Of a DNA stretch of 44,693 nucleotides, positions 7,740 through 30,016 are shown one piece after another; position 1 is the stretch's first letter, and every line of letters begins with the position of its first letter. Below the pieces are notes generated by a model. It did not search any database and was not told the origin of the DNA. It worked only from the letters and a program-made list of their open reading frames with translations. The position numbers were made by a program, and so were the translations under genes. The stretch is from Betaproteobacteria bacterium (lineage in GTDB: Bacteria > Pseudomonadota > Gammaproteobacteria > Burkholderiales > SG8-39), in the NCBI GenBank assembly GCA_016189945.1, contig JACPRN010000047.1, forward strand, positions 1 through 44,693. The letters are read 5' to 3'.

Positions 7740-7744
7740 TGTTC

Positions 7745-7990: not shown

Positions 7991-8068
7991 GTCGATACTC
8001 CTGATGAAAAGTCGGGAATTCCGGACGGCCGGATTCGGCCGTCTCGACGGCATCGAGGCTCTCTGCCC

Positions 8069-8281: not shown

Positions 8282-8448
8282 CGCTCTTACTCCTGTAGAT
8301 GTGAAGGGGGAATCGTCGGCGGGCGGATTTGGCCTCCTCGCCGCCCGGCATTGCACCACGCAAATGTGAACCCTCGATTGCCGATGGCGGGCGTTTGGTA
8401 TCGAACCGAGTGCAAACATTGCCTACTGTTGCGCAGGGGCCGCCTTGT

Positions 8449-8465
8449 TACACTTGGATACACTT
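8449..8465 (+). promoter_or_regulatory. Direct repeat TACACTT x2 with 10-nt period, upstream of the response regulator gene
   Basis: TACACTT at 8449-8455 and 8459-8465, 44 nt upstream of ATG 8509. Flanked by CTTGTTACAC (8444-8453) and CTTGTTCAC (8469-8477). Function not demonstrated. Confidence 0.3.
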
Positions 8466-8508
8466 TCCCTTGTTCACCCCTCTGCGAGCGGTGTTAAATG
8501 GCGCCGAA

Positions 8509-10634: not shown

Positions 10635-10681
10635 CGCGATCAGGGCTCTTATCGATTTCCGGCGCGCATCCTCGTCCGGCT

Positions 10682-11881: not shown

Positions 11882-11917
11882 TGGTGCTTATTCCAATTCG
11901 AGCCAGTCGGAATCATA

Positions 11918-12030
11918 GGTGTTGTCCTTTTGCCTTTATTCAATCTCCACGCTTTCGCGAAGTTGCTTCCAGCAACTTCGCGAAAGCGTGGAGACGAAGT
12001 TACAAACCCAATTCCCGCCACGTTCGTCAA
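11918..12030 (+). repeat. Structured intergenic element, copy 2 (forward orientation)
   Basis: Perfect 23-bp-arm palindrome 11944-11994 (tctccacgctttcgcgaagttgc ttcca gcaacttcgcgaaagcgtggaga). Left flank cttttgcctttattcaa. Right tail caattcccgccacgttcgtcaa ends at 12030. Confidence 0.9.
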
Positions 12031-12046
12031 TCCTCCCCCGAATCAC

Positions 12047-13255: not shown

Positions 13256-13292
13256 GCCGGGCTTCCAGCCATAAATGCGATCATGAACCAGT

Positions 13293-13404
13293 GGTGTTGT
13301 TCTTGCCTTTAACCAATCTCACGATGTTGCAGTGCAATTGCTTGCAATTGCACTGCAACATCGTGAGACATAATTAGAAGCAAATTCCCGCCGCCACTGT
13401 CAAC
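13293..13404 (+). repeat. Structured intergenic element, copy 3 (forward orientation)
   Basis: Perfect 25-bp-arm palindrome 13317-13368. Differs from copy 1 by one compensated pair. Left flank cttgcctttaaccaa. Right tail gcaaattcccgccgccactgtcaac ends at 13404. Confidence 0.9.
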
Positions 13405-13430
13405 ACTCCTCCAGTAAATGCCTGCCCCGA

Positions 13431-14108
13431 TCAATCAACACGCTCATCGGACACGATTGCCCCATCGACCATGCGCAGTCGCCGCTTCGCGTGCGATCCG
13501 ATCTCCGGATCGTGGGTGACAAGCAGCACCGTGCCGCCGTCGCGGTGCACCTGCTCGAGCACCGCCATCACCTCCTGGCCGGTGCGCCGGTCGAGGTTCC
13601 CGGTCGGCTCGTCGGCGAGGATCACCGAAGGACCCATCGACATGGCGCGGGCGATGGCCACGCGCTGGCACTGGCCGCCGGAGAGCTGGTCGGGACGGTG
13701 CCCGCCGCGATCGGCCAGGCCGTAGTCCGAAAGCAGCCGCTCGAGCCTCGCCCTGCGCTCGCCCGGATCGATCCCCGCCAGCACCATCGGCAACTCGATG
13801 TTCTGCGCGGCAGTGAGGCGCTGCACGAGATGAAAGAACTGGAAAACGAAGCCCATCATTTCGCGGCGTACGCGCGCCAGTTGATCGTCGTCGAGCGCGG
13901 TGACGTCGTGGCCGTCCAGTTCGTAGGTGCCGGCGTTGGGCCGGTCGAGCAGGCCGATCATGTTCAAGAGCGTCGATTTTCCGGACCCGGAGGGTCCCAT
14001 GATGGACAGGTATTCGCCGCGCGCAACGTGCAGGTCCACGCCGCGCAGGGCGCGGACCATTTCGCCGCCGACGACGAAAGTCCGCTCGATGCCGGTGAGG
14101 CGGATCAT
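13431..14108 (-). CDS. ABC exporter ATP-binding protein (MacB/LolD-type)
   Basis: Walker A GPSGSGKST, signature LSGGQCQR, Walker B ILADEPTGNLD. Confidence 0.95.
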   Translation of the reverse strand: MIRLTGIERTFVVGGEMVRALRGVDLHVARGEYLSIMGPSGSGKSTLLNMIGLLDRPNAGTYELDGHDVTALDDDQLARVRREMMGFVFQFFHLVQRLTAAQNIELPMVLAGIDPGERRARLERLLSDYGLADRGGHRPDQLSGGQCQRVAIARAMSMGPSVILADEPTGNLDRRTGQEVMAVLEQVHRDGGTVLLVTHDPEIGSHAKRRLRMVDGAIVSDERVD

Positions 14109-15311
14109 CTACGGACGCGACTTCGCCGTTCCCTTCTGCTCCGCGAGCGCCCGGGCGCCCGCCTTGACGCCCTCGCGCTCCAGCGACGTTACCACCCGCT
14201 CGCCGCGCTCAAGCCCTGATTTCACCTCGGTGAACTCCCAGTTGGAAAGCCCCGTTTCGATCCTGCGTTCTTCCAGGGCGCCGCTCGCGCCGAGCACCAG
14301 CACCCGGTTTCCCGGCATCAGCGCGTTGGTCGCAATGCGCACGACACCTTCGCGGCTGCTCACCACGATCTCGATATCGGCGCTGTAGCCGACCAGCAGA
14401 TGCCGCGCCTCGCCCGGATCGTCGAACTCGACCTCGACATCGACGGTGCGCGCCTGCTTCTCCACCGCGAGCACGTAGGGCGCGATGCGCCGCACCTTGC
14501 CGGCAAAGAGTTTGCCGCGGTAGGCATCGAGCGTGATGCGTCCGCGCATGCCTTTCCTGAGCTGCGCGGCGTCCACTTCGTCGATTGGCGCGGTCACGTA
14601 AAGGCAGGAGTCGTCGATCAGGTCCACCGCCGGCAGGGTCGGTATTCCCGGCGGCGACGGGGTCAGGTATTCCCCCACCTCGCCGTTGACTTCGGCGACG
14701 ATGCCGGCGAAGGGCGCGCGCAGCACGGTGCGATCGGTGTCGGCGCGCGAGGCCTGGATGCGCGCCTCGGCTTCTTCGATCTGGGCCGAGGCCGAATCGC
14801 AGCCTGCCTGCTTGGCCGCCGCATCGGATGCGGCGCGCTCCACGGCCTCCTGGGAGACGAAATTGCGCGCGCGCAGCTCGCGCGCGCGCGCCGCGTCGCG
14901 CGCCGAGGCCTTGGCCAGCTCGCACGCTTCCCGCACGCGCGCACGCGCGGTCTGCATCTGCTCGCGCGACAGGCGTTCGCGCGCGACGAGGTCGTCGTTC
15001 CAGAGCATGAGCAGCAACTGGCCCGCGCGCACGCGATCGCCTTCGCGCACCTGGAGCTTTTCGATGCGCCCGCCCATGGGCGGCGCGAGCTTGGCGCGCC
15101 GGCACGCCGACACGGAACCCGCGCGCGTGTTCGCGACCGTTTGCTCGACGCGGCCGGCGTCGACCTCGGCCAAGGCCACCGTCACCGGCTTGGGCCGCGT
15201 GGCATACCAAACGGCTCCGGCGGCCATTGCCGCGACGATCAGCAACAAAAAGATGCGCAGCGCGAGGCGACGCCCCCGACCGGAGTTATTGCGGCTACCC
15301 GTTGTGTTCAT
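14109..15311 (-). CDS. Periplasmic adaptor / membrane fusion protein (HlyD/MacA family)
   Basis: 400 aa. N-terminal TM anchor, coiled-coil region (ARERLSREQMQTARARV...AEARIQASRAD), barrel domains. Its stop TAG directly abuts the ATPase ATG (TAGATG at 14106-14111). Confidence 0.9.
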   Translation of the reverse strand: MNTTGSRNNSGRGRRLALRIFLLLIVAAMAAGAVWYATRPKPVTVALAEVDAGRVEQTVANTRAGSVSACRRAKLAPPMGGRIEKLQVREGDRVRAGQLLLMLWNDDLVARERLSREQMQTARARVREACELAKASARDAARARELRARNFVSQEAVERAASDAAAKQAGCDSASAQIEEAEARIQASRADTDRTVLRAPFAGIVAEVNGEVGEYLTPSPPGIPTLPAVDLIDDSCLYVTAPIDEVDAAQLRKGMRGRITLDAYRGKLFAGKVRRIAPYVLAVEKQARTVDVEVEFDDPGEARHLLVGYSADIEIVVSSREGVVRIATNALMPGNRVLVLGASGALEERRIETGLSNWEFTEVKSGLERGERVVTSLEREGVKAGARALAEQKGTAKSRP

Positions 15312-15608
15312 AGGCTGCCATTATGCCGCGCCTTCTGCTGTTGGCCAGTAGTTTGGCGGGGGCGCAACGCCGGCCTTTTGATCTTGCGCAACTCGTCGCT
15401 TACGAGAACAATCCGGTAATCATACCTGCCGCACGGGTCCGGTCTTCGCCGGACATCGAAGATGTCAGCGCACGAGACCTCGAGGTCAAGCGCATCACCA
15501 TGCAGTTCGCGTCGCGGACCCCTCCGGCCGATTGCCGGCAAAGGCGAAAGGGACGATTATGCCGAGCGCGCGTGAACTGATAGATGCGGGTGCAGAGGAG
15601 GAGCGCCG

Positions 15609-17108
15609 ATGATTCAATCCGATATTTTCAACGACCTGCTGGCGCCGGAGCTTGCCGACGACCTGCGCCGGCTCAACCCGCATTGGGTGGGGCTGCCCGG
15701 TCCGGAAATTCCGCGCTTTCACCGGTATCTTTTTTCCCGCGTGTACCGCAACCTCCAAACGGGTCTAACGCCGGCGACTGTTCTGCGCGGCACACGCCGC
15801 GTCGGCAAGACGATCATGGTCCGTCAGATCATGGAGAAGATGCTCATCGAGGGCATCGACGCCAAGCGGATACTGTACGTTCCGTTCGACGAAATTGGCA
15901 GTCTGCGCAGGCTGCGAGATCCGATCCTGACCATCGTGCGATGGTACGAGTCCAGGCTCCTTGGTCGCACCATGAACGAAGCGGCACGCTCAGTTGGCCC
16001 GGCATACCTGCTGTTCGACGAAGTCCAGAATCTGGATGCGTGGGCGCCTCAGATCAAACACCTGGTGGACAACAATACGGTGCGTGTGCTGCTCACGGGA
16101 AGCTCTTCGCTGCGCATCGAGGCCGGCCGCGATAGCCTTGCCGGACGGATCACTACCTTCGATCTTGGACCATTGCTGTTGCGCGAGATTGCCGAGCTTT
16201 CGCTGGGCGGGCACACGCAGGCGCACTGGGTCGATAACGGAGCCGAGAGCCTGACCGAGCCAGCCTTCTGGAGCACAGGTATCGATAAGGCCCGCCGCGA
16301 GGTCGACCTCCGCCTGCGGGCCTTTACGGCATTTTCGGCGCGAGGCGGCTATCCCATCGCGCACGAACGCGGCGATGCGCCGTGGCAGGAAATGGCGGCT
16401 TACCTCAACGAGACCATCGTCAAACGCGCCATCCAGCACGATCTGAGGCTGGGTCCACGCGGCGCGAAGCGCGACGAGAAGCTGCTGGAGGAGGTTTTCC
16501 GGCTGTGCTGCCGCTACGCCGGTCAGGCCGCGGGCCAGAATGCTTTCGTTCCCGAGATTCGGCAGGCCCTCGCCGGAAACATCGGCTGGAGCCGGATTCT
16601 GACGTACATGCGATTCCTCGACGGTACGCTGCTGGTCCGACTAATCCCGGCGATGGAATTGAGGCTCAAGAAGCGCAAAGCGCCGGCGAAAATCTGCCTT
16701 AGCGATCACAGCCTGCGAGCGAGCTGGCTGCAGGAAATGGTTCCCTTGCATCCCGATGGGCTGAATGCGAGTCCCCATCTTACCGATCTCGCCGGACACC
16801 TTGCGGAAAGCGCGCTGGGCTATTTCCTTGCGTCCATCCCAAACCTGGATATTGCGCATTTTCCCGCTCGCGGCGCCGAGCCTGAAGTCGATTTTGTGCT
16901 CACGGTCGGCACGCGCCGGATCCCGGTCGAAGTCAAATATCGAAGACGCGTCGATCCTCACGAGGACACGCGCGGTCTGCGCGCGTTCGTCGAAAAGACG
17001 GTCTATAACGCCCCGTTCGGTCTGCTGGTAACGCTCGATGACAACGTACGCGTTCCGGACCCCAGAATTATTCCTATCTCGCTCTCGGCCCTGCTTTGGA
17101 TGAGGTAG
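15609..17108 (+). CDS. AAA+ ATPase with C-terminal DUF4143-like nuclease-fold module
   Basis: Walker A GTRRVGKT, Walker B YLLFDEVQ. C-terminal PD-(D/E)xK-like EVDFVL...IPVEVKY. GAGGAGGAG precedes ATG 15609. Confidence 0.85.
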   Translation: MIQSDIFNDLLAPELADDLRRLNPHWVGLPGPEIPRFHRYLFSRVYRNLQTGLTPATVLRGTRRVGKTIMVRQIMEKMLIEGIDAKRILYVPFDEIGSLRRLRDPILTIVRWYESRLLGRTMNEAARSVGPAYLLFDEVQNLDAWAPQIKHLVDNNTVRVLLTGSSSLRIEAGRDSLAGRITTFDLGPLLLREIAELSLGGHTQAHWVDNGAESLTEPAFWSTGIDKARREVDLRLRAFTAFSARGGYPIAHERGDAPWQEMAAYLNETIVKRAIQHDLRLGPRGAKRDEKLLEEVFRLCCRYAGQAAGQNAFVPEIRQALAGNIGWSRILTYMRFLDGTLLVRLIPAMELRLKKRKAPAKICLSDHSLRASWLQEMVPLHPDGLNASPHLTDLAGHLAESALGYFLASIPNLDIAHFPARGAEPEVDFVLTVGTRRIPVEVKYRRRVDPHEDTRGLRAFVEKTVYNAPFGLLVTLDDNVRVPDPRIIPISLSALLWMR

Positions 17109-17349
17109 GGAATAACAGTTGACTGATGCGCTCGGGCTTTGCAGGCTCGCACCCGCCGCAAGCGCGGTGGGTGCGAAAAACATGAAAAATTCCACTTTTC
17201 GCGCTGCTCGGCGCACCTGGCCGATTCGAGATCCTGGATAATCGGTAGACCGATCAAAAAGGTCACACCCGCGTGGCAAGTGCGCCCCCGCGGGAATGAC
17301 GCAAACCGGGTTTGGCAGCGCACTCGAAACGAGCGGCGTAAGACCGCGA

Positions 17350-17925
17350 ATGGGGGGATTCGCCATAAGAAGTTTAGTACTTGCCGTTGCGATCCTGATT
17401 GTGTCCTTATTGGGCGCTCAGGCGCGGGCAGCGACATTTGCAGAAAAGACCTTCGCACAGCTCGTCACCGAGGCCGAGCAGATTTTCGTCGGCACGGTGA
17501 CTTCGCTCCAGTCCCGAAGATTACCCAGCGGCGCTATCGTCACCGACGTCAGATTTTCGGAGCCGCAAGTCATCAAGGGTGACGCGGCCGTTGCGGACCT
17601 CGCCCTCCTTGTTTTGGGAGGCGAAGTGGACGGGGCTCGACTGGAAATTCCGGGGCTGCCTCGATTTCAGCGCGATGCCCGCTATCTCGTGTTTTCCCAG
17701 GGCAACGGCAAAAGCATATTTCCCGTGGTGGGCGGGCCCACCGGATTTTTCCGCATCACCGCGGGGGCGGACGCTCCGGTGGTGCTGTCTTGGTCCGGGG
17801 AGCCGCTCGATTCCGAGTTTGCGGCGCAGGTGCTGGGGAATGTCTCGCCGGCCGATCAAGGCGCATCGCCAATCGCGCTGGAACTGATGCTCGGCGCCAT
17901 CAGGACGAGGCTTGGCCTGCGATAG
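17350..17925 (+). CDS. Exported hypothetical protein
   Basis: Frame of ORF 17296..17925. From ATG 17350 there is a clean signal peptide MGGFAIRSLVLAVAILIVSLLGAQARA. No domain recognised. The start could instead be ATG 17296. Confidence 0.55.
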   Translation: MGGFAIRSLVLAVAILIVSLLGAQARAATFAEKTFAQLVTEAEQIFVGTVTSLQSRRLPSGAIVTDVRFSEPQVIKGDAAVADLALLVLGGEVDGARLEIPGLPRFQRDARYLVFSQGNGKSIFPVVGGPTGFFRITAGADAPVVLSWSGEPLDSEFAAQVLGNVSPADQGASPIALELMLGAIRTRLGLR

Positions 17926-17950
17926 CCGTTGCCATGAAGAAAGAACCGGT

Positions 17951-19207
17951 ATGAAACTCTGCAGAAAGCTCCTCGTGCCGGCTTTTCTCCTTTCCCAGCT
18001 CCTGCCGGCGAGCGCACAGGCATTCGTGCTGCTTCCCGAACCGCCCGCCAGCGGGTTTGTCATGAATCTCGATCTCGAGCCGAGCGCGCCTCTTCAGACC
18101 ACCGGTTACGGAGTCACGACCTGGAACAAACTCGCCGAAATGGCCCTGGCGACGTGGAACGCGGCCGGCGTGGGCAGCGGGCCTGATTTCGGTTTTCTCG
18201 GGGTTGCGAATCCGCGCCTCGCGGGCGGCGCCTGCGCGAGAGACGGCGTCAATGAAGTGACGTGGGCATCGGACAACTGCGGATTTTCCTTCGGCGACGC
18301 CATTGCGATCACGAACCGCTGGGTCGTCAACGGATTGCGCGTCGAAGAGGACGTCATTTTCAACAGCAACCTGCCCTTTGACGCCTACCGCGGTCCTTTG
18401 CGCTACTCGAACGGCCGCTACATCAACGACTTCTATCGCATCGCGGTGCACGAATTCGGCCACGTCGTCGGGCTCGACCACCCGAACCTCGCCGGGCAGA
18501 AAGTCGCGGCGATCATGAACTCTTATCTCGGCAACATCGATTCGCTGCAGCCCGATGACATGGCCGGGGCGCGCGCCATCGCCTGGAACGCCGTATCGGC
18601 TTCGCAGCTCTCTACCGTCGCGTTGAACTTTCTCGCCGGATGGAACCTCGCCGGCAACGGTTCCGGCGCCGCGATCGACGTGGCGCGCACTTTCGGCAAT
18701 TCGACCGACATACTCACGGTCTGGAAATGGGTCGCCGCGGAATCGAAATGGGCGTTTTATTCCCCGTCGCTTTCGGCAGAGAAGTTGAGCGACTACGCCA
18801 GCGGCAAAGGCTACGCGTTGCTCGCCACCGTCGATAGCAGCGAAGGCTTCTGGGTGAACGCCAGGAAGACGTTCACCGCGCATTTTCCGGCCGGCACGAC
18901 GGTATCCTCGGCGTCATTCCAGACGGGGCTTGGGACGGGATGGAACCTGCTTGCGATTGGCGACAACAAGACGCCGCGGGAATTCAACGCGGTGCTCGGG
19001 GCACCGCCCGCGTACGGCGATGTCCCGTCCAACCTGACCACCCTGTGGGCTTGGGATGCCGCGAAGGCGAACTGGTATTTCTATGCGCCGAGTCTCGAAG
19101 CCAAGGGCGGCACCGTCCTGAGCGATTACATCTACACCAAGGGATACCTCGAATTCGGTACCAAAACCCTGGACCCCGCGGCGGGGTTCTGGGTGAATAA
19201 ACCCTAA
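17951..19207 (+). CDS. Secreted zinc metalloprotease (metzincin, matrixin-like) with duplicated C-terminal domain
   Basis: Signal peptide MKLCRKLLVPAFLLSQLLPASAQA. Zinc motif HEFGHVVGLDH followed by a Met-turn-like AAIMNSY. Two C-terminal repeats of about 90 aa (GWNL...W.W.A...W.FY.PSL...SDY...KGY...GFWVN). Confidence 0.85.
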   Translation: MKLCRKLLVPAFLLSQLLPASAQAFVLLPEPPASGFVMNLDLEPSAPLQTTGYGVTTWNKLAEMALATWNAAGVGSGPDFGFLGVANPRLAGGACARDGVNEVTWASDNCGFSFGDAIAITNRWVVNGLRVEEDVIFNSNLPFDAYRGPLRYSNGRYINDFYRIAVHEFGHVVGLDHPNLAGQKVAAIMNSYLGNIDSLQPDDMAGARAIAWNAVSASQLSTVALNFLAGWNLAGNGSGAAIDVARTFGNSTDILTVWKWVAAESKWAFYSPSLSAEKLSDYASGKGYALLATVDSSEGFWVNARKTFTAHFPAGTTVSSASFQTGLGTGWNLLAIGDNKTPREFNAVLGAPPAYGDVPSNLTTLWAWDAAKANWYFYAPSLEAKGGTVLSDYIYTKGYLEFGTKTLDPAAGFWVNKP

Positions 19208-19494
19208 GGCGGCGCCTTCGTCGCTCGTACCGCGTTCGCGCGGGATTCGCAGTTTCGCCTTCCTCTCCCAGGCGACTTTTATTACACGCCCCGTAATGCA
19301 TCGACCGGGCGACATCACTCCCGGAGTGTTGACCCGCGCAATTACAAGATATTACAAATTCCCGTGGCTTCGCGGCTTCCCGACGGTGGAATAGGACCGG
19401 AATAGTCCGTGTTAACCGGGCATCGAACGCGCGCCTGTCCGGCGCGTGGGTACTCCCCAAGAGTTCGTGATCCAGCCACCGAAGGAGGATTGAA

Positions 19495-21060
19495 ATGCAC
19501 AGAAAGCCAAGCTTCATCAGTTTCATCATCGCTTGCCTTGCCGCCCTGACTCTGGCTGGCTGCGGCGGTGGAGGAGGAGGAGGAGACGGTACCGTCGCGG
19601 CAGGTCCGATCCCGAGTCCGATCACAACCCCGCCGCCGCCTCAGACCTGGTTCTTCTCCGAGGGCGCTGCCTTGACCCAAGGGCAGATGACCAGCTTTGA
19701 CAACCAGTTGCTCTATTACAACGTGCACAGTGCGGCGAATCCGGTCGGCGAGATCCGCGGGCAGATCATCCCCGAAGCGGCGTCCTTCGCCACCGACAAC
19801 GGCGACCCGGTTGCGAGCAATACGTTCGCTACCCTGATGACGGGCGACCAGGAGGTTCCCGCCAACTTGAGCAAGGCAACCGGTTACGCGGCGGTTTCCT
19901 TCGATCCGCTGACCAGGACCCTGACCGGCGTCGTCGTCACCAGCGGCGTCGTCGGCACGGTGGCGCACCTCCATGCGGGTGCTCCCGGAGTGGTCGCCCC
20001 ACCTCAGATTCCGCTGACCGGCGGTCCGACGGTCTGGAGAGTTCCCGAAGGCACCATCCTGACCGACGCGCAGGTCACAACGCTGCAGACCGGAGGCTAT
20101 TACGTCAACGTGCACAGCACAGCGGCGCCCGGCGGCGAAATCCGTGGCCAGCTTACCGATCGGTTGCGATTTGCAGGCTTGAGCGGCGCCAATGAAGTCC
20201 CGCCCAACAACAGCACGGCCTCAGGCGTTGGTGTGCTGTCATTGACCCCGACGACCAACGCGATCCGCGGTTTCGTCCAGACCACCGGGATCACCGCGAC
20301 CGTGGCCCACATTCACCTGGGAGTGCCGGGGGTCATCGGCGGGGTCATCGTGCCTCTGACTCAAACCCCTGCGGGCAGCGGCCTGTGGGTCGTGCCTGCC
20401 GGCCGAACACTGACGCCAGACCAGGTGGCCGCGTTTGACGCGGGCAACCTCTACTTCAACGTCCACAGCGCGGCGTTTCCCGTCGGCGAGATCCGCGGCC
20501 ATATCCTGGCGGCGAGCGTCAAGATCGGCAATGCGGCGCTCGAAGGCGCCAACGAAGTCCCACCCGTTGTCACCGATGCGGGCGGCACAGGGATCATGAC
20601 CGTGAATACCGTTACGCGGGGGGTTCAGGGCAACGTGTTTACCACCTTGATCGAAGGCACGGTAGCCCATGTCCATGAAGGTCCGCTCGGAGTGATCGGG
20701 CCGGTGATCATCCCGCTCACCCTGACGCCGCCGGCGTCAACCTTCGCGGCGGCGGTTTCGTTCCTCGCGCAGGTCCAGCCGATCTTCACCGCGAGTTGCA
20801 CGACCGCCTGCCACACGCCCGGTGGAATTGCCGCCTTCCTCGACCTGTCGAGCGCCCCGGTGTCCTTCGCAGCCTTGACGGCGCCGAGAACGCCGCCTTT
20901 GCAGGCTTACGTCATAGCGGGAAATTCTGCGGGAAGTCTGCTTTTTGGGCGGATAAACGGCTCGGTGCTGCCGCAGATGCCGCTTTTGGCGCCACCGTTG
21001 AGCGCCGCCGACCAAACTCTGATCAAGAACTGGATCGACCAGGGGGCGGCGAACAACTAG
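19495..21060 (+). CDS. Lipoprotein with CHRD-domain repeats and a C-terminal PSCyt1-like domain
   Basis: Lipobox LTLAGC followed by poly-Gly. Recurring CHRD signatures: NVHSAANPVGEIRGQI, VAHLHAGAPGV...YVNVHSTAAPGGEIRGQL, VAHIHLGVPGV...YFNVHSAAFPVGEIRGHI, VAHVHEGPLGV. C-terminal VQPIFTASCTTACH...LIKNWIDQGA. GAAGGAGGA precedes ATG 19495. Confidence 0.85.
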   Translation: MHRKPSFISFIIACLAALTLAGCGGGGGGGDGTVAAGPIPSPITTPPPPQTWFFSEGAALTQGQMTSFDNQLLYYNVHSAANPVGEIRGQIIPEAASFATDNGDPVASNTFATLMTGDQEVPANLSKATGYAAVSFDPLTRTLTGVVVTSGVVGTVAHLHAGAPGVVAPPQIPLTGGPTVWRVPEGTILTDAQVTTLQTGGYYVNVHSTAAPGGEIRGQLTDRLRFAGLSGANEVPPNNSTASGVGVLSLTPTTNAIRGFVQTTGITATVAHIHLGVPGVIGGVIVPLTQTPAGSGLWVVPAGRTLTPDQVAAFDAGNLYFNVHSAAFPVGEIRGHILAASVKIGNAALEGANEVPPVVTDAGGTGIMTVNTVTRGVQGNVFTTLIEGTVAHVHEGPLGVIGPVIIPLTLTPPASTFAAAVSFLAQVQPIFTASCTTACHTPGGIAAFLDLSSAPVSFAALTAPRTPPLQAYVIAGNSAGSLLFGRINGSVLPQMPLLAPPLSAADQTLIKNWIDQGAANN

Positions 21061-21103
21061 CTTCCGGCAGCTCTGCGGCATGACTACGCATGCCGTGTAA
21101 TTG

Positions 21104-21145
21104 AAAGAGGTGTCAGCCGTTCGCGGCTGACACCTCTTTTTTCTG
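21104..21145. terminator. Strong rho-independent terminator between convergent genes
   Basis: Perfect 16-bp stem aaagaggtgtcagccg / cggctgacacctcttt (21104-21119 and 21124-21139), loop ttcg, then a T-run through 21142. It lies 44 nt after the CHRD gene stop and 15 nt beyond the stop of the convergent UbiD gene. The T-tail is much better on the + strand. Confidence 0.85.
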
Positions 21146-21159
21146 TCCTAAGCTCGTGC

Positions 21160-22602
21160 CTAATTCCCGAACAGCACTTCGCCCCATTTGCGCTTCACCT
21201 GCTGCATGACCTCGGGCGCAGTCTTGGTCGTTTTGGGGAACTGGTCGCGCCAAGCCCAGGGCCTGCAGGCGTCGATCACCGCGGTCGAACAGGTCAGGTC
21301 TCCGGCTTTTCGCTTCTCCGGCTCCAGTCGCGGGTCCGATGCCATCGACAGGCGGTTCGTGAGGATGTCGATTTGGCTCTTCGGATCGCAGCGCGTGCCC
21401 AGGGCCCACAGGACTTCCGACACGTTGGTCGGATCGATGTCGTCGTCGACGATAATGATGAACCTCCCGACGTGCGTTGCGCCCCTGTAGGTTCCGGCAG
21501 CGATCAAGGCGGCCTGTTTGACGTGCCCCGGATACATCTGCTTTAGCGAAACCACCACCATGGTGCGGCGCCTGGCTTCGTTGACGAAAGACACGCCCTT
21601 CACTCCCGGAATCTGGCGGTCGAACTCGTCCCATAATTGCGCCGACAGATCGAGACCGGTGGTCAGGTTGTCGTCGTAGGTGCCGACCAGCATCGGGACT
21701 CCGAGCTGGATCGGGTCGTTTCGGTGCAGGATTGCTTTCACCTTGACGATCGGGTGCGGCGTCCTGCCGCCGGTGTAGTAGCCCTCCCATTCTCCGAAGG
21801 GCCCTTCGATGCCGGTTTCGACCTGCGGCGGCGGCATTTCGCCTTCGAGCACGATCTCGGCTTCGGCGGGAATAGGCAGATCGACCGTCTCGCCTCGCAC
21901 CACTTCGACCGGCCTGTTTCTCAATCCGCCGGCAAAATCGTATTCGCTGATCCCGACGGGAATTGCAGCCACCGAGGAAAGGTAGAGCTGGAGCCCCTGC
22001 CCGCAGGCGATGGCGATCGGGCACGCGAGCCCGCGGTCCCAGTATTTCCTGGCGATGATCGCGCCGTGATGGCCGGGAACGCAGTGAAAGGTGACCGTGT
22101 TGCGGTCGATGATCTGCGAGCGGTAGGTGCCGAGATTGACCCAGCCGGTTTCGGGGTCCTTCTGGATCACCATGCACCCGGTGCCGATGTAGCGTCCGCC
22201 GTCCAATTCATGCCATTGCGGGGTGGGAAACTTGAGCACATCGACCGCGTCGCCCCTGAGCACATTCTCCTTGACCGGTCCCGAGCGCACTTCGACGGGA
22301 GAAATGGGTTTGGTCGCTGCCAGCGTTTCTTTCCACGCCCGCACCAGATCGAGCCCCTTCAACTCCAGGGGCAACCCAAGGGCGAGGCAGATGCGCCGTG
22401 ACGATGTGAACGGATTGGCCGCGACGCGATACCCCGCTGGATACCCCGGCACTTGGTCAAACAGCAGCATCGGCGAATCCGGAACCGAGAGCGCCAATTC
22501 GGCAATGCGTCCGATTTCGACATTCCAATGGGCGCCTTCGATGGTTCTGCATTCGCCCAGTTCTTTGGCCTTGGCCAGGAATTCCCTCAAATCGCCGAAC
22601 AT
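21160..22602 (-). CDS. UbiD-family (prenylated-FMN dependent) decarboxylase, copy 1
   Basis: Frame of ORF 21160..22617. ATG 22602 (MFGDLREFLAKAKELGE) is preceded by GGGAGAG. Full-length UbiD-like sequence of about 480 aa. Confidence 0.9.
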   Translation of the reverse strand: MFGDLREFLAKAKELGECRTIEGAHWNVEIGRIAELALSVPDSPMLLFDQVPGYPAGYRVAANPFTSSRRICLALGLPLELKGLDLVRAWKETLAATKPISPVEVRSGPVKENVLRGDAVDVLKFPTPQWHELDGGRYIGTGCMVIQKDPETGWVNLGTYRSQIIDRNTVTFHCVPGHHGAIIARKYWDRGLACPIAIACGQGLQLYLSSVAAIPVGISEYDFAGGLRNRPVEVVRGETVDLPIPAEAEIVLEGEMPPPQVETGIEGPFGEWEGYYTGGRTPHPIVKVKAILHRNDPIQLGVPMLVGTYDDNLTTGLDLSAQLWDEFDRQIPGVKGVSFVNEARRRTMVVVSLKQMYPGHVKQAALIAAGTYRGATHVGRFIIIVDDDIDPTNVSEVLWALGTRCDPKSQIDILTNRLSMASDPRLEPEKRKAGDLTCSTAVIDACRPWAWRDQFPKTTKTAPEVMQQVKRKWGEVLFGN

Positions 22603-22650
22603 TGACAGCTCTCCCAATGGGGTCAGGCCCCTTTCTTTCCTTTCTTTCTC

Positions 22651-23418
22651 TCAACCCGGCATCGCCGAGCGGATGCGCTCGGCGGCCTGCCGCAGAGGAA
22701 CCAGGAATTTCCGCTTTGCCGCCGCTTCGTCATAGGTCCCCGAAGTGAAGGAGACGCTGATCGCCGCCACGGCCGCGCTGGCGGCGTCGCGCACCGGAAC
22801 GGCGATGCCGCAGATCGCCGGATCGAGCTCGCCATCGACCCAGGCGTAGCCTTGCCGCTGGACGATCTCCAGCGCGCCCTTGAGTGCGCCTGGTTTGGTG
22901 ATCGAGCGCGGCGTACGAGGCTCGAGTTCCGCAACCTCCAGATAGCGGCGCAGCGCCTGCTTGTCCAGATGAGCAAGCAGCACCCGCCCCAGGGACACGA
23001 CGTGCGCCGGCAGGCGGCTGCCGACCGACAGGTTCATAGCGAGGATCCGCCGCGACGGAATTCGCAGCACGTACACGATCTCCTCGCCATCGAGCACCGC
23101 CATCGAGCAGGATTCCTGCGCACCGCTGCGCAGATCTTCGAGCGCCGGCTGGGCATAGCGCCAAAACGGCAGCGAATCGAGATAGGACAGCCCGAGCTTG
23201 AGCGCTCGCGGCGTGAGCGCGAAAAGCCTGCCGTCGCTCTGGGCGTAGCGCTGCGCGCACAGCGTCATCAGCAAGCGGCGCACCACGCTACGCGGCAGTT
23301 TGGTCGCCTCGGCGATCTGCGCGATGGTCTTGCGCGGTGCACCCGCGCCCATCGCCTCGATCACCTCCAGTCCACGCGCGAAAGCGCGCACGAAGTCTTC
23401 GCTTTCCGGAGTCGCCAT
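22651..23418 (-). CDS. IclR-family transcriptional regulator (PcaR-like)
   Basis: N-terminal wHTH DFVRAFARGLEVIEAM...IAQIAEATKLPRSVVRRLLMTL, plus a C-terminal effector domain. No obvious SD sequence before the ATG. Confidence 0.9.
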   Translation of the reverse strand: MATPESEDFVRAFARGLEVIEAMGAGAPRKTIAQIAEATKLPRSVVRRLLMTLCAQRYAQSDGRLFALTPRALKLGLSYLDSLPFWRYAQPALEDLRSGAQESCSMAVLDGEEIVYVLRIPSRRILAMNLSVGSRLPAHVVSLGRVLLAHLDKQALRRYLEVAELEPRTPRSITKPGALKGALEIVQRQGYAWVDGELDPAICGIAVPVRDAASAAVAAISVSFTSGTYDEAAAKRKFLVPLRQAAERIRSAMPG

Positions 23419-23431
23419 GGGAGTGAGCAGC

Positions 23432-23537
23432 GCTGTTGCTCTTGCCCTTAATCAATCTCCACGGTCTGGTGCGGTTGCTTGCAACTGCACCAGACCGTGG
23501 AGACGTATCAAAAAGCGAATTCCCACCGCTTCGCCAG
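23432..23537 (+). repeat. Structured intergenic element, copy 4 (forward orientation)
   Basis: Palindrome 23456-23503, 23-bp arms with a single G:T position (23474 vs 23486). Left flank cttgcccttaatcaa. Right tail gcgaattcccaccgcttcgccag, where the GTCAA end is degenerate. Confidence 0.85.
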
Positions 23538-23549
23538 CATCCCTCGAGG

Positions 23550-23578
23550 TTGACACGATCCGCTCCAAGTTATTAAAT
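23550..23578 (+). promoter_or_regulatory. Candidate sigma70-type promoter for the MaoC/ligase operon
   Basis: TTGACA at 23550-23555, 17-nt spacer, TTAAAT at 23573-23578, about 70 nt upstream of ATG 23648. Followed by the 11-nt palindrome ccgcattgcgg, a possible operator. Prediction by eye only. Confidence 0.35.
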
Positions 23579-23647
23579 GACCGCATTGCGGATATTGAAG
23601 TTCGTCTAGCGGTTATTCTACGCAGACCACAACAAAAGAGCCAGCCC

Positions 23648-24118
23648 ATGCCAGAGAGCTTCGAAACCGACTTCTGGAAGGACGCCGAACGGCGAAAGGT
23701 TTGGGACGACATCGTGCCGGGCGAGCCGCGCAAGACCATTCCCTACACCCTCACGCTGGAGGCCATCCAGAAATACTGCCGCGCGGTCGGCGACCTGCAT
23801 CCACTGTATTTCGACGAAGCCTATGCGAAGGCTACCCCTTGGGGGGGATTGATCGCGCCGCCTTCGATTCACATTCTGCTCATGTTCTCCTGCACGCCGG
23901 CCGACGACTGGATGCGCAGTCCCGGCACCATCAACGCCGGCCAGTCCTGGAGCTACAACATTCCGGCGCGCCCCGGCGATACCATCACGCTTGCCGCGCG
24001 CGCGCTGGACAAATTCATCAAGAAAGACCGCCTGTTCGTCATCCATGACAACGTGTTCTTCAACCAGAACGCCCAGGTGATCTGCTCCGGCCGCGGCTGG
24101 ACCATACGTCCGATCTGA
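23648..24118 (+). CDS. MaoC-like hotdog-fold protein (N-terminal-type hydratase subunit)
   Basis: Frame of ORF 23300..24118. Start at ATG 23648 (MPESFETDFWKD...). Sequence LTLEAIQKYCRAVGDLHPLYFDEAYAKATPWGGLIAPPS. Confidence 0.8.
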   Translation: MPESFETDFWKDAERRKVWDDIVPGEPRKTIPYTLTLEAIQKYCRAVGDLHPLYFDEAYAKATPWGGLIAPPSIHILLMFSCTPADDWMRSPGTINAGQSWSYNIPARPGDTITLAARALDKFIKKDRLFVIHDNVFFNQNAQVICSGRGWTIRPI

Positions 24119-24126
24119 GTACGCCC

Positions 24127-24570
24127 ATGAACGACGCCTACGACGCCCTCAAGCAAGACGACATAGTGAACGGTCCGAAATTCCAGGTATCGCGCGAATC
24201 GATCCGCGCATTCTGCGAGGCATCGCTCGATTTCAATCCCCTGCACTGGGACGACGAGTACATGAAAAGCAGTTTCGGCAGGACCCGGTTCGGGGGCATC
24301 ATCATGCACGGAATGACCAACTTCGGGCTCATCACGCGCATGCTCACCGACTGGCTCTATCCGCTCGGCGGCGTGCACCGGCGGCTGGAGACGCGCTGGA
24401 AAACGCCGGTCAGGCCCGGCGACGTCATCCGGCCCAGCGCGCGCATCACGGGAAAGAAGCGAACCCAGCGAAGCCGCTGGGTGACGCTCGAGATCGAAGT
24501 CAAGAATCAGCGCGGCGAAACCGTCGCCGTCGGCGAAGCGATGGCCGAGTTTCCGCCGCAGGGCAGGTAG
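24127..24570 (+). CDS. MaoC-family (R)-specific enoyl-CoA hydratase/dehydratase subunit
   Basis: Sequence SRESIRAFCEASLDFNPLHWDDEYMKSSFGRTRFGGIIMHGM is a typical MaoC dehydratase signature. Starts 8 nt after the upstream gene. Confidence 0.85.
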   Translation: MNDAYDALKQDDIVNGPKFQVSRESIRAFCEASLDFNPLHWDDEYMKSSFGRTRFGGIIMHGMTNFGLITRMLTDWLYPLGGVHRRLETRWKTPVRPGDVIRPSARITGKKRTQRSRWVTLEIEVKNQRGETVAVGEAMAEFPPQGR

Positions 24571-24580
24571 CAAAAGCGCA

Positions 24581-26116
24581 ATGATTCTGGGACGCTGCCT
24601 GGCGCGCAATGCGCTGCTCTATCCCGACAAGCCCGCCATCGTTTCCGCCGACGGAAGCACGCTCACCCACGCAGCGCTCGCCGAGCGCGTCAATCGCCTG
24701 GCCAATGCGCTCGCCGCGGAAGGCATGGCCAAGGGCGACAAGATCGCCATCCTGGCGCGCAATTCGCCTGAGTACCTGCAGGTCTATTTTGCCGCGGCAA
24801 AAATCGGCGCTCCGATGGTGCCGATCAACTTCCAGCTCAAAGCCCCCGATATTCATTACCGGCTGGAGCACTCCGATGCGCGCGCGCTGGTCGTGGAGAG
24901 CGAATTCCTGGGGCTGCTCGACGGCCTGCCGGATGGCGCGCGCGAGGCGCTCGGCGCGCGCATTTTCGTTCGCGGCGGCGACGGCGCACGCGCGCGAGCG
25001 CTCGACGAGCTGATCGATTCGGCGCCCGCGACCGAGCCCGAGGCGACGCTCTCGCCGGAAGACACGCTCTACATCGGCTATACCTCAGGCACCACCGGCC
25101 CTTCGAAGGGGGCGCTGGTCTCCCACCGGGCGATCGTGGCCGGCTATCTCTACAAGGCGCTCGACTACCGGCTGGGTCGCCGGGACGTCAATCTCGATCC
25201 GGGGCCGTTCTGGCACTCGGCCCCGCGCGATTTTGCTTCGCTCGCAATCTACCTCGGCGGCACCTGCGTGGTCACGCGCGGGTTCGAGGCGCGCGAATTC
25301 TACGAACTGGTCGAGCGCCACAAGGTGAGCAATTCGTTCATGGTGCCGACCATGTACCAGCTTCTAACCGCATTCGAGGACGCGGGCCGCTACGACGCCT
25401 CCAGCCTGCGGGTGCTGATCTCCGGAGGATCGCCGCTCCCGAGCGCGGTGAAGGACCGGGTAGTCGAGCGCTTCGGGCCGATCCTGCACGAGTTCTACGG
25501 CGCGACCGAAACCCGCATCATCACCAACATCACCGCGACGGAACTCTCCGCGCACAAGCGCGCGGTCGGCCGGCCCATCCGCGATGTGGAACTGCGCATC
25601 CTGGACGAGGCCGGGCGCGACGTGTCCGCGGGCGCGGTCGGCGAGGTCTTCGTGCGCGGCCCGGGGCTGTTTTCCGGCTATTACAAGGACCCGGAGCGGA
25701 CCAGGAAAAGCCATCGCGGCGAGTGGTTTTCGCTCGGCGATCTGGGCCGGCTCGACGAACAGGGATATCTCTATCTGGTCGATCGCAAGCAGGACATGAT
25801 CATCAGCGGCGGGGAGAACATCTATCCGAGCGACATCGAGGAAGTGTTGCTCGGGTTCCCGGGGGTGAAGGAAGCGGCGGTGATCGGCACGCCCGACGAA
25901 ACTTGGGGCGAGCTGGTGACCGCGATCGTGGTCCCGCGCGAGGGCGAAGCGGTGCCGGAGCGCGAACTGATCGAGTACTGCGGCGCGCGTCTGCCAAGCT
26001 ATATGAAGCCGCGGCGCGTAGAATTCGTCGCAGCGCTGCCGCGCAATCCGGTGGGCAAAGTCCTGCGGCGCGTGCTGCGCGAACCGTACTGGCAGGGACA
26101 GGAAGCGAGAATATAG
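24581..26116 (+). CDS. AMP-dependent acyl-CoA synthetase/ligase
   Basis: AMP-binding motif YTSGTTGPSKGA and hinge region GDLGRLDEQGYLYLVDRKQDMIISGGENIYP. 511 aa. Confidence 0.95.
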   Translation: MILGRCLARNALLYPDKPAIVSADGSTLTHAALAERVNRLANALAAEGMAKGDKIAILARNSPEYLQVYFAAAKIGAPMVPINFQLKAPDIHYRLEHSDARALVVESEFLGLLDGLPDGAREALGARIFVRGGDGARARALDELIDSAPATEPEATLSPEDTLYIGYTSGTTGPSKGALVSHRAIVAGYLYKALDYRLGRRDVNLDPGPFWHSAPRDFASLAIYLGGTCVVTRGFEAREFYELVERHKVSNSFMVPTMYQLLTAFEDAGRYDASSLRVLISGGSPLPSAVKDRVVERFGPILHEFYGATETRIITNITATELSAHKRAVGRPIRDVELRILDEAGRDVSAGAVGEVFVRGPGLFSGYYKDPERTRKSHRGEWFSLGDLGRLDEQGYLYLVDRKQDMIISGGENIYPSDIEEVLLGFPGVKEAAVIGTPDETWGELVTAIVVPREGEAVPERELIEYCGARLPSYMKPRRVEFVAALPRNPVGKVLRRVLREPYWQGQEARI

Positions 26117-26141
26117 TCACTTACGAGTTACAGGTATATTG

Positions 26142-26242
26142 TTGACGATTCAGGGGAAGAGTTTGCCGTTGTTATGGTCTCGTGTTTTCGCGCAGTTGCA
26201 ACTTCGCAACTGCACGAAAGCACGAGCTTGAAAGAAGGCAAG
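26142..26242 (-). repeat. Structured intergenic element, copy 5 (reverse orientation)
   Basis: TTGACG at 26142-26147. Palindrome 26178-26226 with 21-bp arms and two non-Watson-Crick positions, loop aacttc. Then cttgaaagaaggcaag. Confidence 0.85.
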
Positions 26243-26296
26243 ACCAGTCCCTTTATGCCGGCTTAGCTTGGAAGCAGTTTCATAAGGGAGGGCTCA

Positions 26297-27265
26297 ATGA
26301 TCCGACTGATGAGAGTTGTTGCGGCGTGCTGTGTGCTTTTCGGTTTCGGCGTTGGCAGCCACGCTCAATCGTTTCCCGCCACGGCGGTAAAGATCATCGT
26401 TCCGTTTCCTCCCGGCGCAACCACGGACATCGTTGCGCGAGAGGTCGCCAATCAGCTCGGGCCTCGCTGGCGCGTTCCGGTCATCGTCGAGAACAAGGCG
26501 GGCGCGAGCGGAATCATCGGCTCCGAGCAGATCGCCCGCGCCGTGGGCGATCCGCATCTGCTCATGGTGACGGCAACCCACCACGTCATCAATCCGAGCC
26601 TGTACAAGAAACTGCCCTACGACCCCAGGCGCGACTTCACCTCGCTTGCATTGATCGCCAGCGCTCCCAACGTGCTGATCGTCAATTCGGCTTTCCCGGC
26701 ACAAACAGTCGCCGAACTGATCAAGATCGCGAAGGAAAAGCCGGCGACGATCGGCTTCGGATCGACCGGCATCGGAGGCGCGAACCACCTGGCGGGCGAA
26801 CTGTTCCAGGTGATGTCGGGGGCGAAGCTCTTTCACATCCCCTACAAGGGGTCCGCACCGGCGATGAACGATCTGCTCGCCGGGCACGCGCCCGTCATGT
26901 TCGCCGGGCTCGCCTCGGTCATACCGCACATGCAGTCGGGAAGGCTGCGCGCGCTCGGCGTAACCTCGATGAAGCGCGTGCCGACCGCCCCGGACATCCC
27001 GACCCTGGACGAGGCGGGGGTCAAGGGCTTCGAGGTGCTGTCGTGGTTCGGGCTCTACGGACCGCCGCAACTGCCCGCCGCGGCGGTGGCGAAAATCACC
27101 GCCGATGTCGGCGCGGTGCTCGCCTCGGCGCACATCAAGACGAGCTTCAACCGGCAGGGCGTCGATCCGGGAGCGATGAGCCAGCCGGAGTTCGCGCGTT
27201 ACGTCGAGACCGAAATGGACAAGTGGGGCCGTGTCATCGAGCACGCGAAGATACCGAAGCAATAG
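26297..27265 (+). CDS. Bug-family (TctC-like) tripartite tricarboxylate transporter substrate-binding protein
   Basis: Signal peptide, then the Bug hallmark FPATAVKIIVPFPPGATTDIVAREVANQLG...VENKAGASG. AAGGGAGGG precedes ATG 26297. Confidence 0.95.
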   Translation: MIRLMRVVAACCVLFGFGVGSHAQSFPATAVKIIVPFPPGATTDIVAREVANQLGPRWRVPVIVENKAGASGIIGSEQIARAVGDPHLLMVTATHHVINPSLYKKLPYDPRRDFTSLALIASAPNVLIVNSAFPAQTVAELIKIAKEKPATIGFGSTGIGGANHLAGELFQVMSGAKLFHIPYKGSAPAMNDLLAGHAPVMFAGLASVIPHMQSGRLRALGVTSMKRVPTAPDIPTLDEAGVKGFEVLSWFGLYGPPQLPAAAVAKITADVGAVLASAHIKTSFNRQGVDPGAMSQPEFARYVETEMDKWGRVIEHAKIPKQ

Positions 27266-27313
27266 GGGCGCTGGGCGGTGCTTCCCGGGACAAGCCATAC
27301 GAACTTGAACCAC

Positions 27314-27422
27314 CGATGCCGTTTCTCGCAGTTACTCAATCTCCACGTTTTCGTTCAGTTGCTCGCAACTGAACGAAAACGTGGAGACCTATTTAAAGGC
27401 AAGTTCCCGCCGCTGCCGTCAA
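27314..27422 (+). repeat. Structured intergenic element, copy 6 (forward orientation)
   Basis: Perfect 23-bp-arm palindrome 27340-27387, loop tc. Right tail tttaaaggcaagttcccgccgctgccgtcaa ends at 27422. The left flank shares CGATGCCG with copy 1. Confidence 0.9.
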
Positions 27423-27436
27423 TACGCATCCGATAA

Positions 27437-30016
27437 GTGAAACGCGTGACTGCGACCGACGACGCCTGGATCCCCTCCTCCTGCGCGCTTTGCTACGGAT
27501 CCTGCTCGATCCTCGCTCACCGGGTCGACGGTGTGGTGGTAAAGGTGGAAGGCAATCCCGGGAGCGTGGTTGGCCGTGGCCGCCTGTGCGGCAAAGGCGT
27601 CTCGGGAATCATGACGCACTACGATCCGAACCGGCTGAAAAAACCGCTGCGCCGCACCAACCCCGCGAAGGGGCTCGACGAGGACCCGCGCTGGAAGGAA
27701 ATAAGCTGGGACGAGGCACTGCATGAGATCGCCGCGGTCCTGAAGCGCCTGCGCGCAGACGACGCGCGCAAGCTCATGGTCCAGCGCACTACCACGGTGA
27801 GCGCGAGCCGCATCCCGTTTGCGGCGTTCGCATCGGCTTTCGGCACGCCCAACGTCTCCACCGCAGGCGGCGGGCTGCACTGCGGCAACGGCACGCATTT
27901 CTTTGCCGGGATGATGCACGCCTCCTGGGGAATCGTTCCCGATTTTGCGTACTGCAACTACGCCCTCTATTTCGGCGCCTCCAAGGGCCACGGCGCGGGC
28001 CACGCTTCGAGCTCCAACATGGGACTCGCGGCCGAGGCGCGCGCCCGCGGCATGAAGCTCGTGGTGGTCGATCCGATGTGCAACTTCGCCGCTGCAAAAG
28101 CAAACGAATGGGTGCCGCTGCGCGTCGGTACCGACGGCGCGCTGGCGCTGGCGATGTGCCAGGTCCTGGTCAATTAACACATCCTCATCTACCAGACTTA
28201 ACTGCAGGCGAAGACCAACGCGCCCTACCTGATCGGACCCGACCAGCTCTACGCGCGCGACCCGGCTTCGGGCAAGCCGCTCGTCTGGGACCACGCGGCC
28301 GGCGCGGCGCTCCCCTACGGCGATGCCGATCCCGCCGAGACGGCCCTGGAAGGCGATTTCGCGGCGAACGGCGTCCGCTGCCAGCCCGCTTTCCAGAAGC
28401 TGAAGGAACACCTGGGGAAATTCACTCCGGAGTGGAGCGAGGAAATCACCACGGTTCCGGCAGCCAGAATCCGCCGCCTCGCTGCCGAGTTCGGCCGCGA
28501 AGCGCGCATCGGCAGCACCATCGTGGTCGAAGGGACGACCCTGCCCTACCGGCCGGTCGCCGCGGTCGCCTTCCGCGGCGCGCAGGGCCACATGAATTCG
28601 GTGTACAACTTCTTCGCCATCGATTTGCTCAACCAGTTGGTGGGCGCCTGCGACGTGGTGGGCGGCTGCCTGGGATTCAATCCGGCCTGCAAGGGTTATC
28701 CGGAAACCGGCCGGCTGCGCTACGTTCCCAAGGCGGGACCCGACGGCCTGATGACGGTCGGCATCTGGATGGGACACCACTATCCCTATCCCCTCGCCGA
28801 GCCGCGCCTGCCGCAGAACATGGCCTTGAACGATCTGTTCGTGGCCGCCCGGCACACGCCGTTCCTCGATTCCGACGACCGGGAAGATTTGTGGGAAAGG
28901 CTCGAGCTCGGCTACCGCCCGGAGGTGATGCTCAACTTCGGCGCCAATCTGCTGATGAGCATCGCAAACCGGGAGACGGTGGCGAGGTCGCTTGCGCAAT
29001 ACGAGTTCATGGTGTCGATCGACCTGTTCGAGACCGAAACCACGCGCTTTGCCGATATCGTGCTGCCCGACTGCAGCTACCTCCAGTCGATCGATTCGCG
29101 TTCCAACTATCCCTTCATCTTCAGCCTGCCCGCGGGGATGGGCGAATGGTGCTGGCCGATCCGCCAGCCGGTGCTCGAACCGGAGGGCGAGCAGCGCCGC
29201 TTCCAGGACGTGCTGTTCGAACTGGCGGACCGCATCGGTTTGCGCGCCGACGTGAACGCCGCCCTGAACGCCTCCTTGAATCTCGCCCCTGAATATCGCC
29301 TGCAGGGAGATCGCCGCTACACGTGGGAAGAGGTCTGCGACGCCGATCTGAAAAGCGCTTTCGGCGCGGCGCGCGGGCTCGACTGGTTCAAGGAGCACGG
29401 CGTCATCAAATGGCCCAAGCGGCCCGAAGAAGTGTATTGGCGAGCGTTCGTCGATGTGCGCGTGCCGATCTACCTCGAGTTCATGCGCTCAGCCGGAGAG
29501 AAAATCGCGGCCATCTGCGAGCCGCGCGGGCTGAAGATCCCGCGCGAGTATTACCAGCCGCTGCCCGAATTTCTGCCCTGCCCTTCGCACCTCTGCAAGT
29601 CGCCGGGATTCGACCTGTACGCTTTCTATTATCGCGACACGATTCACACCAACAGCTTTACGATGGAGAACCCCTGGCTCGATGAGGCCGCGCGCCTCGA
29701 TCCCTTTTCCTACACCATCGCCATCAACGCCGACACCGGCAGGCAAAAAGGGCTGCGCGACGGCGCGCTGGTGCAGGTGGAGACCGAGAGGGGGAAAAAG
29801 GTGAAAGGCCGGGCGCATCTCACCCAGGCGATTCATCCCGAAGGGTTGGGAATCGCCGCGTGCGCGGGCCATTGGGGCGACGGCATGCCCGTGGCCAAGG
29901 GCAAAGGCGTATTCTTCAACGAATTGCTGGAACTCGATTGGGATCACGCGAGTCCGGCGAACCTGAGCCTGGACCTGTGCGTGCGGGTGAAAGTCACGCA
30001 GATGGAGGATGCATGA
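27437..30016 (+). pseudogene. Stand-alone molybdopterin (bis-PGD) oxidoreductase, interrupted by two in-frame TAA codons
   Basis: ORFs 27437..28177 and 28523..30016 are in the same frame. Reading through TAA 28175-28177 and TAA 28199-28201 gives one continuous 860-codon protein. It has an N-terminal 4Fe-4S motif CALCYGSCS...CGKG and a C-terminal molybdopterin dinucleotide-binding domain. No Tat signal and no adjacent FeS subunit gene. It could instead be recoded or a sequencing artefact. Confidence 0.8.

Follow-up and report, generated by a model that had tools for sequence, protein, structure and literature searches.

Two in-frame TAA codons in a PadB-like molybdenum enzyme gene of a groundwater betaproteobacterial MAG are probably a local consensus error

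Results

The locus and its two in-frame stop codons

The window that we analysed is the whole of contig C279 (44,693 nt) from a fragmented assembly of 3.55 Mb in 328 contigs, 80% complete and with 65% GC. It carries the gene for the catalytic subunit of a Mo/W-bisPGD oxidoreductase (Table 1), and the neighbourhood of this gene is a catabolic island with two MaoC-type genes, a CoA ligase, Bug/TctC receptors, a UbiD enzyme and an AOR enzyme. The reading frame starts at GTG 27437 and ends at the TGA of 30014-30016, which is directly followed by a second TGA. An earlier note on this DNA, made from the letters alone, had described the frame as open throughout save for two TAA codons, and its coordinates proved correct. 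It was also right about the surroundings of the stops: both have the context T-TAA-C, five of the seven codons between them end in C, and the next in-frame start past the two TAA, a GTG, lies at 28523. The shared context amounts to a 5-nt direct repeat, TTAAC, present at both stops with 19 nt between its copies.

Table 1. Coordinates of the gene, of the features around its stop codons, and of internal stops on other contigs of the assembly
Feature	Position	Strand	Basis or comparison
Mo/W-bisPGD oxidoreductase catalytic subunit gene (cytoplasmic), two TAA inside	27437..30016	+	Pfam domains, homologs
Paralog-shared stretch (MKLVVVDPMCN)	28049..28092	+	common to many paralogs and other organisms
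Second weakly supported stretch, 6 positions	28090..28104	+	70 nt upstream of the patch
Substitution patch, 27 nt, no indel	28175..28201	+	8 changes vs runs X1-X3; 7 vs X4 and GCA_016183605.1
First in-frame TAA	28175..28177	+	GAA (Glu) in read-derived contigs and independent MAG
Second in-frame TAA	28199..28201	+	TAC (Tyr) in read-derived contigs and independent MAG
TAG in paralog of the same Mo enzyme (..APEYR(stop)QGDRRY..)	C91:3156-3158 (L013 pos 257-259)		X1, X2, X3 = TTG (Leu)
TAG splitting an ORF of ~600 aa (..PATVGA(stop)PVNVGIQ..)	C24:3365-3367 (L015 pos 266-268)		four runs = TCG (Ser)
TAA in PilT/PilU-like ATPase (..GSGKSTTLAAMIG(stop)RNENSYGHIITIEDP..)	C323:297-299 (L014 pos 248-250)		organism's own run contigs do not cover the spot

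The product, ~860 aa in length, has the domain order Fe4S4, Molybdopterin, Molydop_binding: PF04879 (Fe4S4, E 5e-12) and PF00384 are found in its N-terminal half, and PF00384 and PF01568 in its C-terminal half. These domains make it a catalytic subunit of the Mo/W-bisPGD (DMSO reductase) superfamily, and it belongs to the PadB-like clade; among NCBIfam models, the likeness to PhsA, ArrA and related enzymes is sub-threshold only. Full-length homologs have 856-876 aa and are 72-86% identical, and those that are named, from Betaproteobacteria MAGs, bear the annotation 'molybdenum enzyme, large subunit, related to phenylacetyl-CoA:acceptor oxidoreductase'. The nearest solved structures are PsrA/thiosulfate reductase (2VPW), ArrA (6CZ7) and acetylene hydratase (2E7Z). 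Exact-product look-ups with the truncated ORF and two neighbouring genes returned no match.

The PadB-like family is strongly expanded, with about nine close copies in this assembly (complete or truncated at a contig end) and ten or more in genomes of the same genus (G001-G003) and in one from another genus of the same family (G018). A second Mo-enzyme clade, at ~40% identity, also occurs in these genomes.

The stops belong to a block of substitutions in a conserved motif

To define the residues expected at the stops, we anchored 97 homologs on the following LQAKTNAPY and read the nine columns that correspond to the patch, which gave the family motif E-L-G-x-[Y/I/F]-D-x-[P/A]-[Y/F]. The first three columns hold E (91/97), L (91/97) and G (75/97); the fourth is variable, the fifth is Y, I or F, and the sixth is D in all 97; the seventh is again variable, the eighth is P or A in every homolog, and the ninth, that of the second stop, is Y in 83 and F in 14. 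Read through, the window patch gives stop-HILIYQT-stop, which leaves none of the six conserved columns intact and retains just the three variable ones, whereas the version found in read-derived contigs, ELGLIDQPY, fits every conserved column. Because all six conserved columns are affected, the stops are part of a corrupted block and not isolated point changes. The view that read-through would yield a normal-looking conserved core of the enzyme family therefore fails at the patch, where the L, G, D and P of the motif are changed as well. The motif given in the earlier note (NE.lYD.EF) came close, and its proposal that both stops replace Glu was half right: an alignment with orthologs does give sense codons at both positions, Glu at the first (GAA) and Tyr or Phe at the second (TAC in the reads).

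At the DNA level the window patch is TAACACATCCTCATCTACCAGACTTAA and the sense version is GAACTC(G/A)GCCTTATCGACCAGCCTTAC, with a GC content of 37% and 56%, respectively. From window letter to read letter the changes are T>G, A>T, A>G, T>G, C>T, T>G, A>C and A>C; at 28181 run X4 has A, as does the window. An alignment of the DNA with five orthologs is ungapped across the patch. Relative to the read-derived contigs there are 8 differences in the 27 nt of the patch, compared with 0 in the 70 nt before it and 0 in ~390 nt after it, so that the clustering of the two stops, noted earlier as unlikely to be random, is indeed far beyond chance.

No donor or templating sequence for the patch was found in the assembly, in 596 Gb of GTDB genomes or in JGI metagenomes. 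Gene conversion from a paralog and templated mutagenesis were rejected on the basis of blastn-short and repeat searches of the assembly, which gave chance matches of 12 nt or less only, and scans of GTDB and JGI with IUPAC and exact patterns likewise returned nothing but two chance 20-mers with unrelated flanks. DGR-like adenine mutagenesis was discarded since the changes are not specific to A.

Read-derived contigs and a sister MAG carry sense codons

Read support was judged on Logan contigs, from which rare variants are dropped, so that a rare supporting read in the MAG's source run may have escaped notice. Four groundwater metagenomes of one study carry the locus, X1 at 49x, X2 at 30x, X3 at 3.7x and X4 at 3.1x. 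Over 2,000-22,000 the X1 contigs match the window near-perfectly (one contig of 4,336 nt has 0 differences), which indicates that the same population is present in X1. No difference from the window is seen in contigs of the four runs over 28105-28174, nor between 28202 and at least 28500 (in X1 up to 28595), apart from two SNPs in X4. Between these flanks X1-X3 read AAT GAA CTC GGC CTT ATC GAC CAG CCT TAC CTG, i.e. N-E-L-G-L-I-D-Q-P-Y-L.

A further copy came to light when the 246-aa truncated product was used as query. It hit a 98%-identical partial protein in another NCBI MAG, which has the same start (MKRVTATDDAW) and continues onward as ...LVNELSLIDQPYLQA. The corresponding contig (GCA_016183605.1, JACPEE010000811.1) is syntenic and aligns without gaps to 22282-28212 at 99.46% identity, ending 11 nt past the patch. 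Of its 32 differences from the window, 7 are patch positions, where it reads GAA CTC AGC CTT ATC GAC CAG CCT TAC; from this nearest allele to the window the changes are three G>T, two C>A, one T>A and one T>C. Five copies, from four runs and one independent MAG, thus carry GAA CTC GGC/AGC CTT ATC GAC CAG CCT TAC (ELG/SLIDQPY) and read N-E-L-G/S-L-I-D-Q-P-Y-L in translation. Sense codons at both sites had been put forward earlier as the sign of an artefact, and GAA and TAC are what the contigs of the four runs and the independent MAG contain.

The divergence between the window and the sister MAG (locus L018) is unevenly spread, being 0.08% over 22282-27396 and ~3% over 27397-28104, a segment that comprises the intergenic region and the first third of the Mo-enzyme gene. 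This pattern suggests a hot region of recombination or gene conversion within a multi-paralog family.

Contigs with the window's patch letters were found in none of X1-X4, even at a reporting threshold of 1%, and at these positions the depth labelled other_depth equals all_depth; a k-mer index of all served runs contains no run that holds the 31-mers of the patch. Just upstream, X3 and X4 hold the window's allele alone, with 0 differences over 27900-28069 and 27900-28026, respectively; despite this window-type upstream allele, both have only the sense version at the patch. A fifth run, X39, has strain-specific words in common with the window at 20235-20340, and its contigs show a gap exactly over 28134-28206, which is what words seen only once would produce. 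The full stretch 28066-28150 is held by no indexed run. Each of the five runs departs from the window at one or more SNPs, so the sample from which the MAG was truly derived may not be one of them.

The patch lies beside an assembly trouble spot

Directly upstream of the patch is the stretch that encodes MKLVVVDPMCN, over which the summed contig depth reaches 800-1100x compared with ~50x for the genome. The read-derived contigs that match the window (records 5, 12 and 17) all end at 28069, and we therefore regard this stretch as an assembly-graph tangle. Read-derived contigs break nearby at 28069, 28133, 28154 and 28207.

In the second weakly supported stretch (28090-28104) the window letter has some X1 depth at 28090 and none at the other five positions, in the runs or in the other MAG. 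As four of the six differences are synonymous, the stretch may represent a real allele that was not sampled, or may belong to the same faulty path as the patch.

Several other irregularities were seen on the contig. At 2293-2294, 24267-24268 and 28102-28103 all runs with coverage have GG, and the window has a tandem AA that is private to the assembly. Towards the 3' end of a CHRD-like gene (20985-21021) there are five substitutions and indels of +1 and -1 relative to X1 and X2, of which X4 shares at least the difference at 20985; either a divergent allele or a further local consensus problem may explain this cluster. A contig that links 30978, where the second Bug/TctC gene ends, back to 25937, at the 3' end of the CoA-ligase gene, through 39 additional letters is present in all four runs, at approximately full genome depth in X1, X2 and X4. 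It could reflect a tandem duplication or a different arrangement of the Bug / Mo-enzyme / Bug segment, or could belong to a paralogous locus.

Other internal stops and strain variation in the assembly

The whole assembly was scanned for in-frame stops by GC3 and GC1-GC2. The output consists mostly of ordinary gene boundaries and antisense frames, with true internal stops on C91, C24, C323 and possibly C189; from such a handful there is no evidence of genome-wide recoding, nor can a usable error rate be derived. The stops on C91 and C24 are private single substitutions, each the sole difference from the run contigs over several hundred bases (500 nt for C24). By eye, the product of the C24 ORF looks like a hydantoinase-B/oxoprolinase.

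The remaining differences between window and runs amount to ~0.05-0.5%, fall mostly at third codon positions, are common to one run or another and are often clustered in the manner typical of recombination (23740-23767 and 29530-29581, and 27397-28104 relative to the sister MAG). Because they resemble genuine strain polymorphism, the assembly is not generally error-ridden; the contig is a mosaic of real strain alleles and not of generally poor quality.

Discussion

A local consensus error

With ordinary Glu and Tyr codons at these sites in the other read-derived copies, the stops most likely stem from an error of local assembly or sequencing, and we consider it probable that the consensus of this MAG is locally wrong at the two TAA codons and that the gene of the organism does not have them. 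None of the read-derived copies examined contains the patch; all of them encode the conserved motif, which the window version breaks in all six conserved columns. The internal stops of C91 and C24, which are likewise private single substitutions, point the same way, as do the failure to find a template in the genome, GTDB or JGI and the low dN/dS on both sides of the stops. Changes that are confined to substitutions and biased towards G>T and C>A fit Illumina-type errors.

The setting is a genome with at least nine paralogs, several strains that coexist in the samples, and a graph tangled by the paralog-shared stretch upstream of the patch. There the assembler may have followed a path through the spot that rested on very few error-laden reads, or on a single one, and lost the correct path, perhaps as a short tip. 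The outcome would be 7-8 wrong bases, all substitutions, two of which created stops while the others altered the L, G, D and P of the motif. This exact assembler mechanism is our inference. Weighing against a consensus error is that a de Bruijn assembler normally favours the well-covered path, so that a special graph situation must be assumed. A minor real allele could also be hidden, given that Logan contigs drop rare variants; moreover, no run of the five matches the window at every SNP, and the other private differences (~0.05-0.5%) look like genuine polymorphism. Unsupported local consensus stretches are a documented error class of short-read MAGs; one report found 13 of them in a genome of 1.13 Mb (PMC7111523).

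A real, very recent dead allele

The strongest alternative takes the patch for a genuine dead allele of very recent origin in one strain, produced by one clustered event of 7-8 substitutions, mostly G:C>T:A. The strain would be scarce in the five runs or missing from them, the event would have knocked out one of at least nine paralogs, and the consensus of the MAG would have followed that strain; a possible cause is error-prone repair synthesis on DNA with oxidative damage. We regard this as unlikely, although it accounts for several observations. The MAG is a mosaic of real strain alleles in a population where SNP clusters are common, five of the seven changes relative to the nearest allele are G>T or C>A and thus form a coherent spectrum, the loss of one copy would be tolerable given the many paralogs, and Logan contigs can hide minor alleles. 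The remaining 2.5 kb of the gene contain no frameshifts or further stops, and the comparison of dN/dS upstream and downstream of the stops that had been proposed earlier, now run against five orthologs, gives 0.09-0.17 upstream and 0.13-0.26 downstream, i.e. no relaxed constraint; a recent event would be expected to leave the rest of the gene free of decay.

Other features of the patch are at odds with a dead allele. Most changes in the other SNP clusters are synonymous, and these clusters have counterparts among alleles of other runs, whereas the patch is 6/7 nonsynonymous (7/8 relative to X1-X3) and matches nothing anywhere. Seen as a pseudogene, the gene has a lesion that is absent from the contigs of four runs and from an independent MAG; the four runs include two that hold only the window's flanking allele. 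Non-templated substitution clusters of such density are very rare in bacteria. A strand-biased, non-templated hypermutation event that placed 7-8 substitutions in 27 nt and silenced one PadB-like paralog in one strain is an unlikely reading in our estimation; if true, it would amount to kataegis-like clustered mutation observed in a natural population of bacteria, that of an uncultured groundwater betaproteobacterium.

Recoding, insertion and engineering

That the TAA codons are read through, suppressed or bypassed to give a full-length enzyme was among the possibilities raised earlier, and it has little in its favour beyond a frame that is intact on both sides and the T-TAA-C context at both stops. 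ARAGORN found no tRNA with a UUA anticodon among the 26 tRNAs of the whole assembly (80% complete), a search that had also been suggested, and TAA is a normal terminator that ends 151 of 1367 long ORFs with high GC3. A stop occurs in the nine patch columns in none of the 97 homologs, and none occurs at these sites among paralog hits from the five genomes with close paralogs (41 genomes searched), where the sole other internal stop is that of C91, at a different site. Elsewhere in the scan, an in-frame TAA at a conserved sense position was met once, on C323; the other verified internal stops are TAG. Furthermore, the population's own copies carry GAA and TAC, and the residues between the stops violate the motif, so that even full read-through would give a damaged protein. 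We also rejected a bypass with take-off at AAT-TAA and landing at AAC 28200-28202, which would resume out of frame and drop nine conserved residues. Functional recoding or read-through is thus effectively excluded. The assembly does contain a gene for tRNA-Sec (anticodon TCA), which makes use of selenocysteine by this organism likely; this is irrelevant to TAA codons.

A mobile-element scar, adapter or primer contamination, or a deliberate edit, suggested by the TTAAC repeats on either side of 19 nt, is about as improbable: the ungapped alignment with orthologs and reads, in which 19-20 of the 27 bases are unchanged, means that nothing was inserted and rules out an insertion scar or target-site duplication, the patch has no second occurrence in the genome and none in public contigs, and the source is an environmental MAG. 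Recoding, read-through, bypass and engineering, even when taken jointly, are very improbable.

Implications and comparison with known systems

The population's gene is intact, and nothing points to recoding of TAA. The case does bear on data quality, since the MAG is a GTDB species representative in which at least three genes are broken by stops without read-derived contig support. Private nonsense codons of this kind in MAGs may be mistaken for pseudogenes, split genes or recoding events. A practical check is to overlay contigs of independent runs, or a sister MAG, on any in-frame stop in a MAG before it is interpreted.

In its domain order, its length of ~860 aa and its setting in a catabolic island, the enzyme resembles the PadB-like Mo-bisPGD enzymes and their relatives of known structure (2VPW, 6CZ7, 2E7Z). 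The C279 protein differs in having no visible Tat signal, and its family name is a database annotation and not the outcome of an assay.

TGA-encoded selenocysteine is well known in this molybdopterin enzyme superfamily. The present gene shares with systems of stop reassignment or programmed read-through (TGA for Sec, TGA for Gly or Trp, TAG for Pyl) the occurrence of in-frame stops in a conserved molybdopterin enzyme. It departs from them in that the codon is TAA and not TGA and that the sites are not the active-site Cys/Sec position, and also in the lack of a cognate tRNA, of conservation of the stops and of a genome-wide signal. A nonsense pseudogene of a redundant paralog would likewise combine premature stops in a gene that is otherwise intact with many paralogs that could cover for it; here, the stops lie in a dense cluster of 7-8 substitutions that is not in the population's reads, with no relaxed constraint downstream. 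The local assembly errors described by Chen, Anantharaman, Shaiber, Eren and Banfield (2020, Genome Res; PMC7111523) are alike in that an unsupported stretch in a strain-variable, repeat-like region leaves a gene broken. In the present case the changes are substitutions only and the frame is kept, and support was judged by Logan contigs together with an independent MAG.
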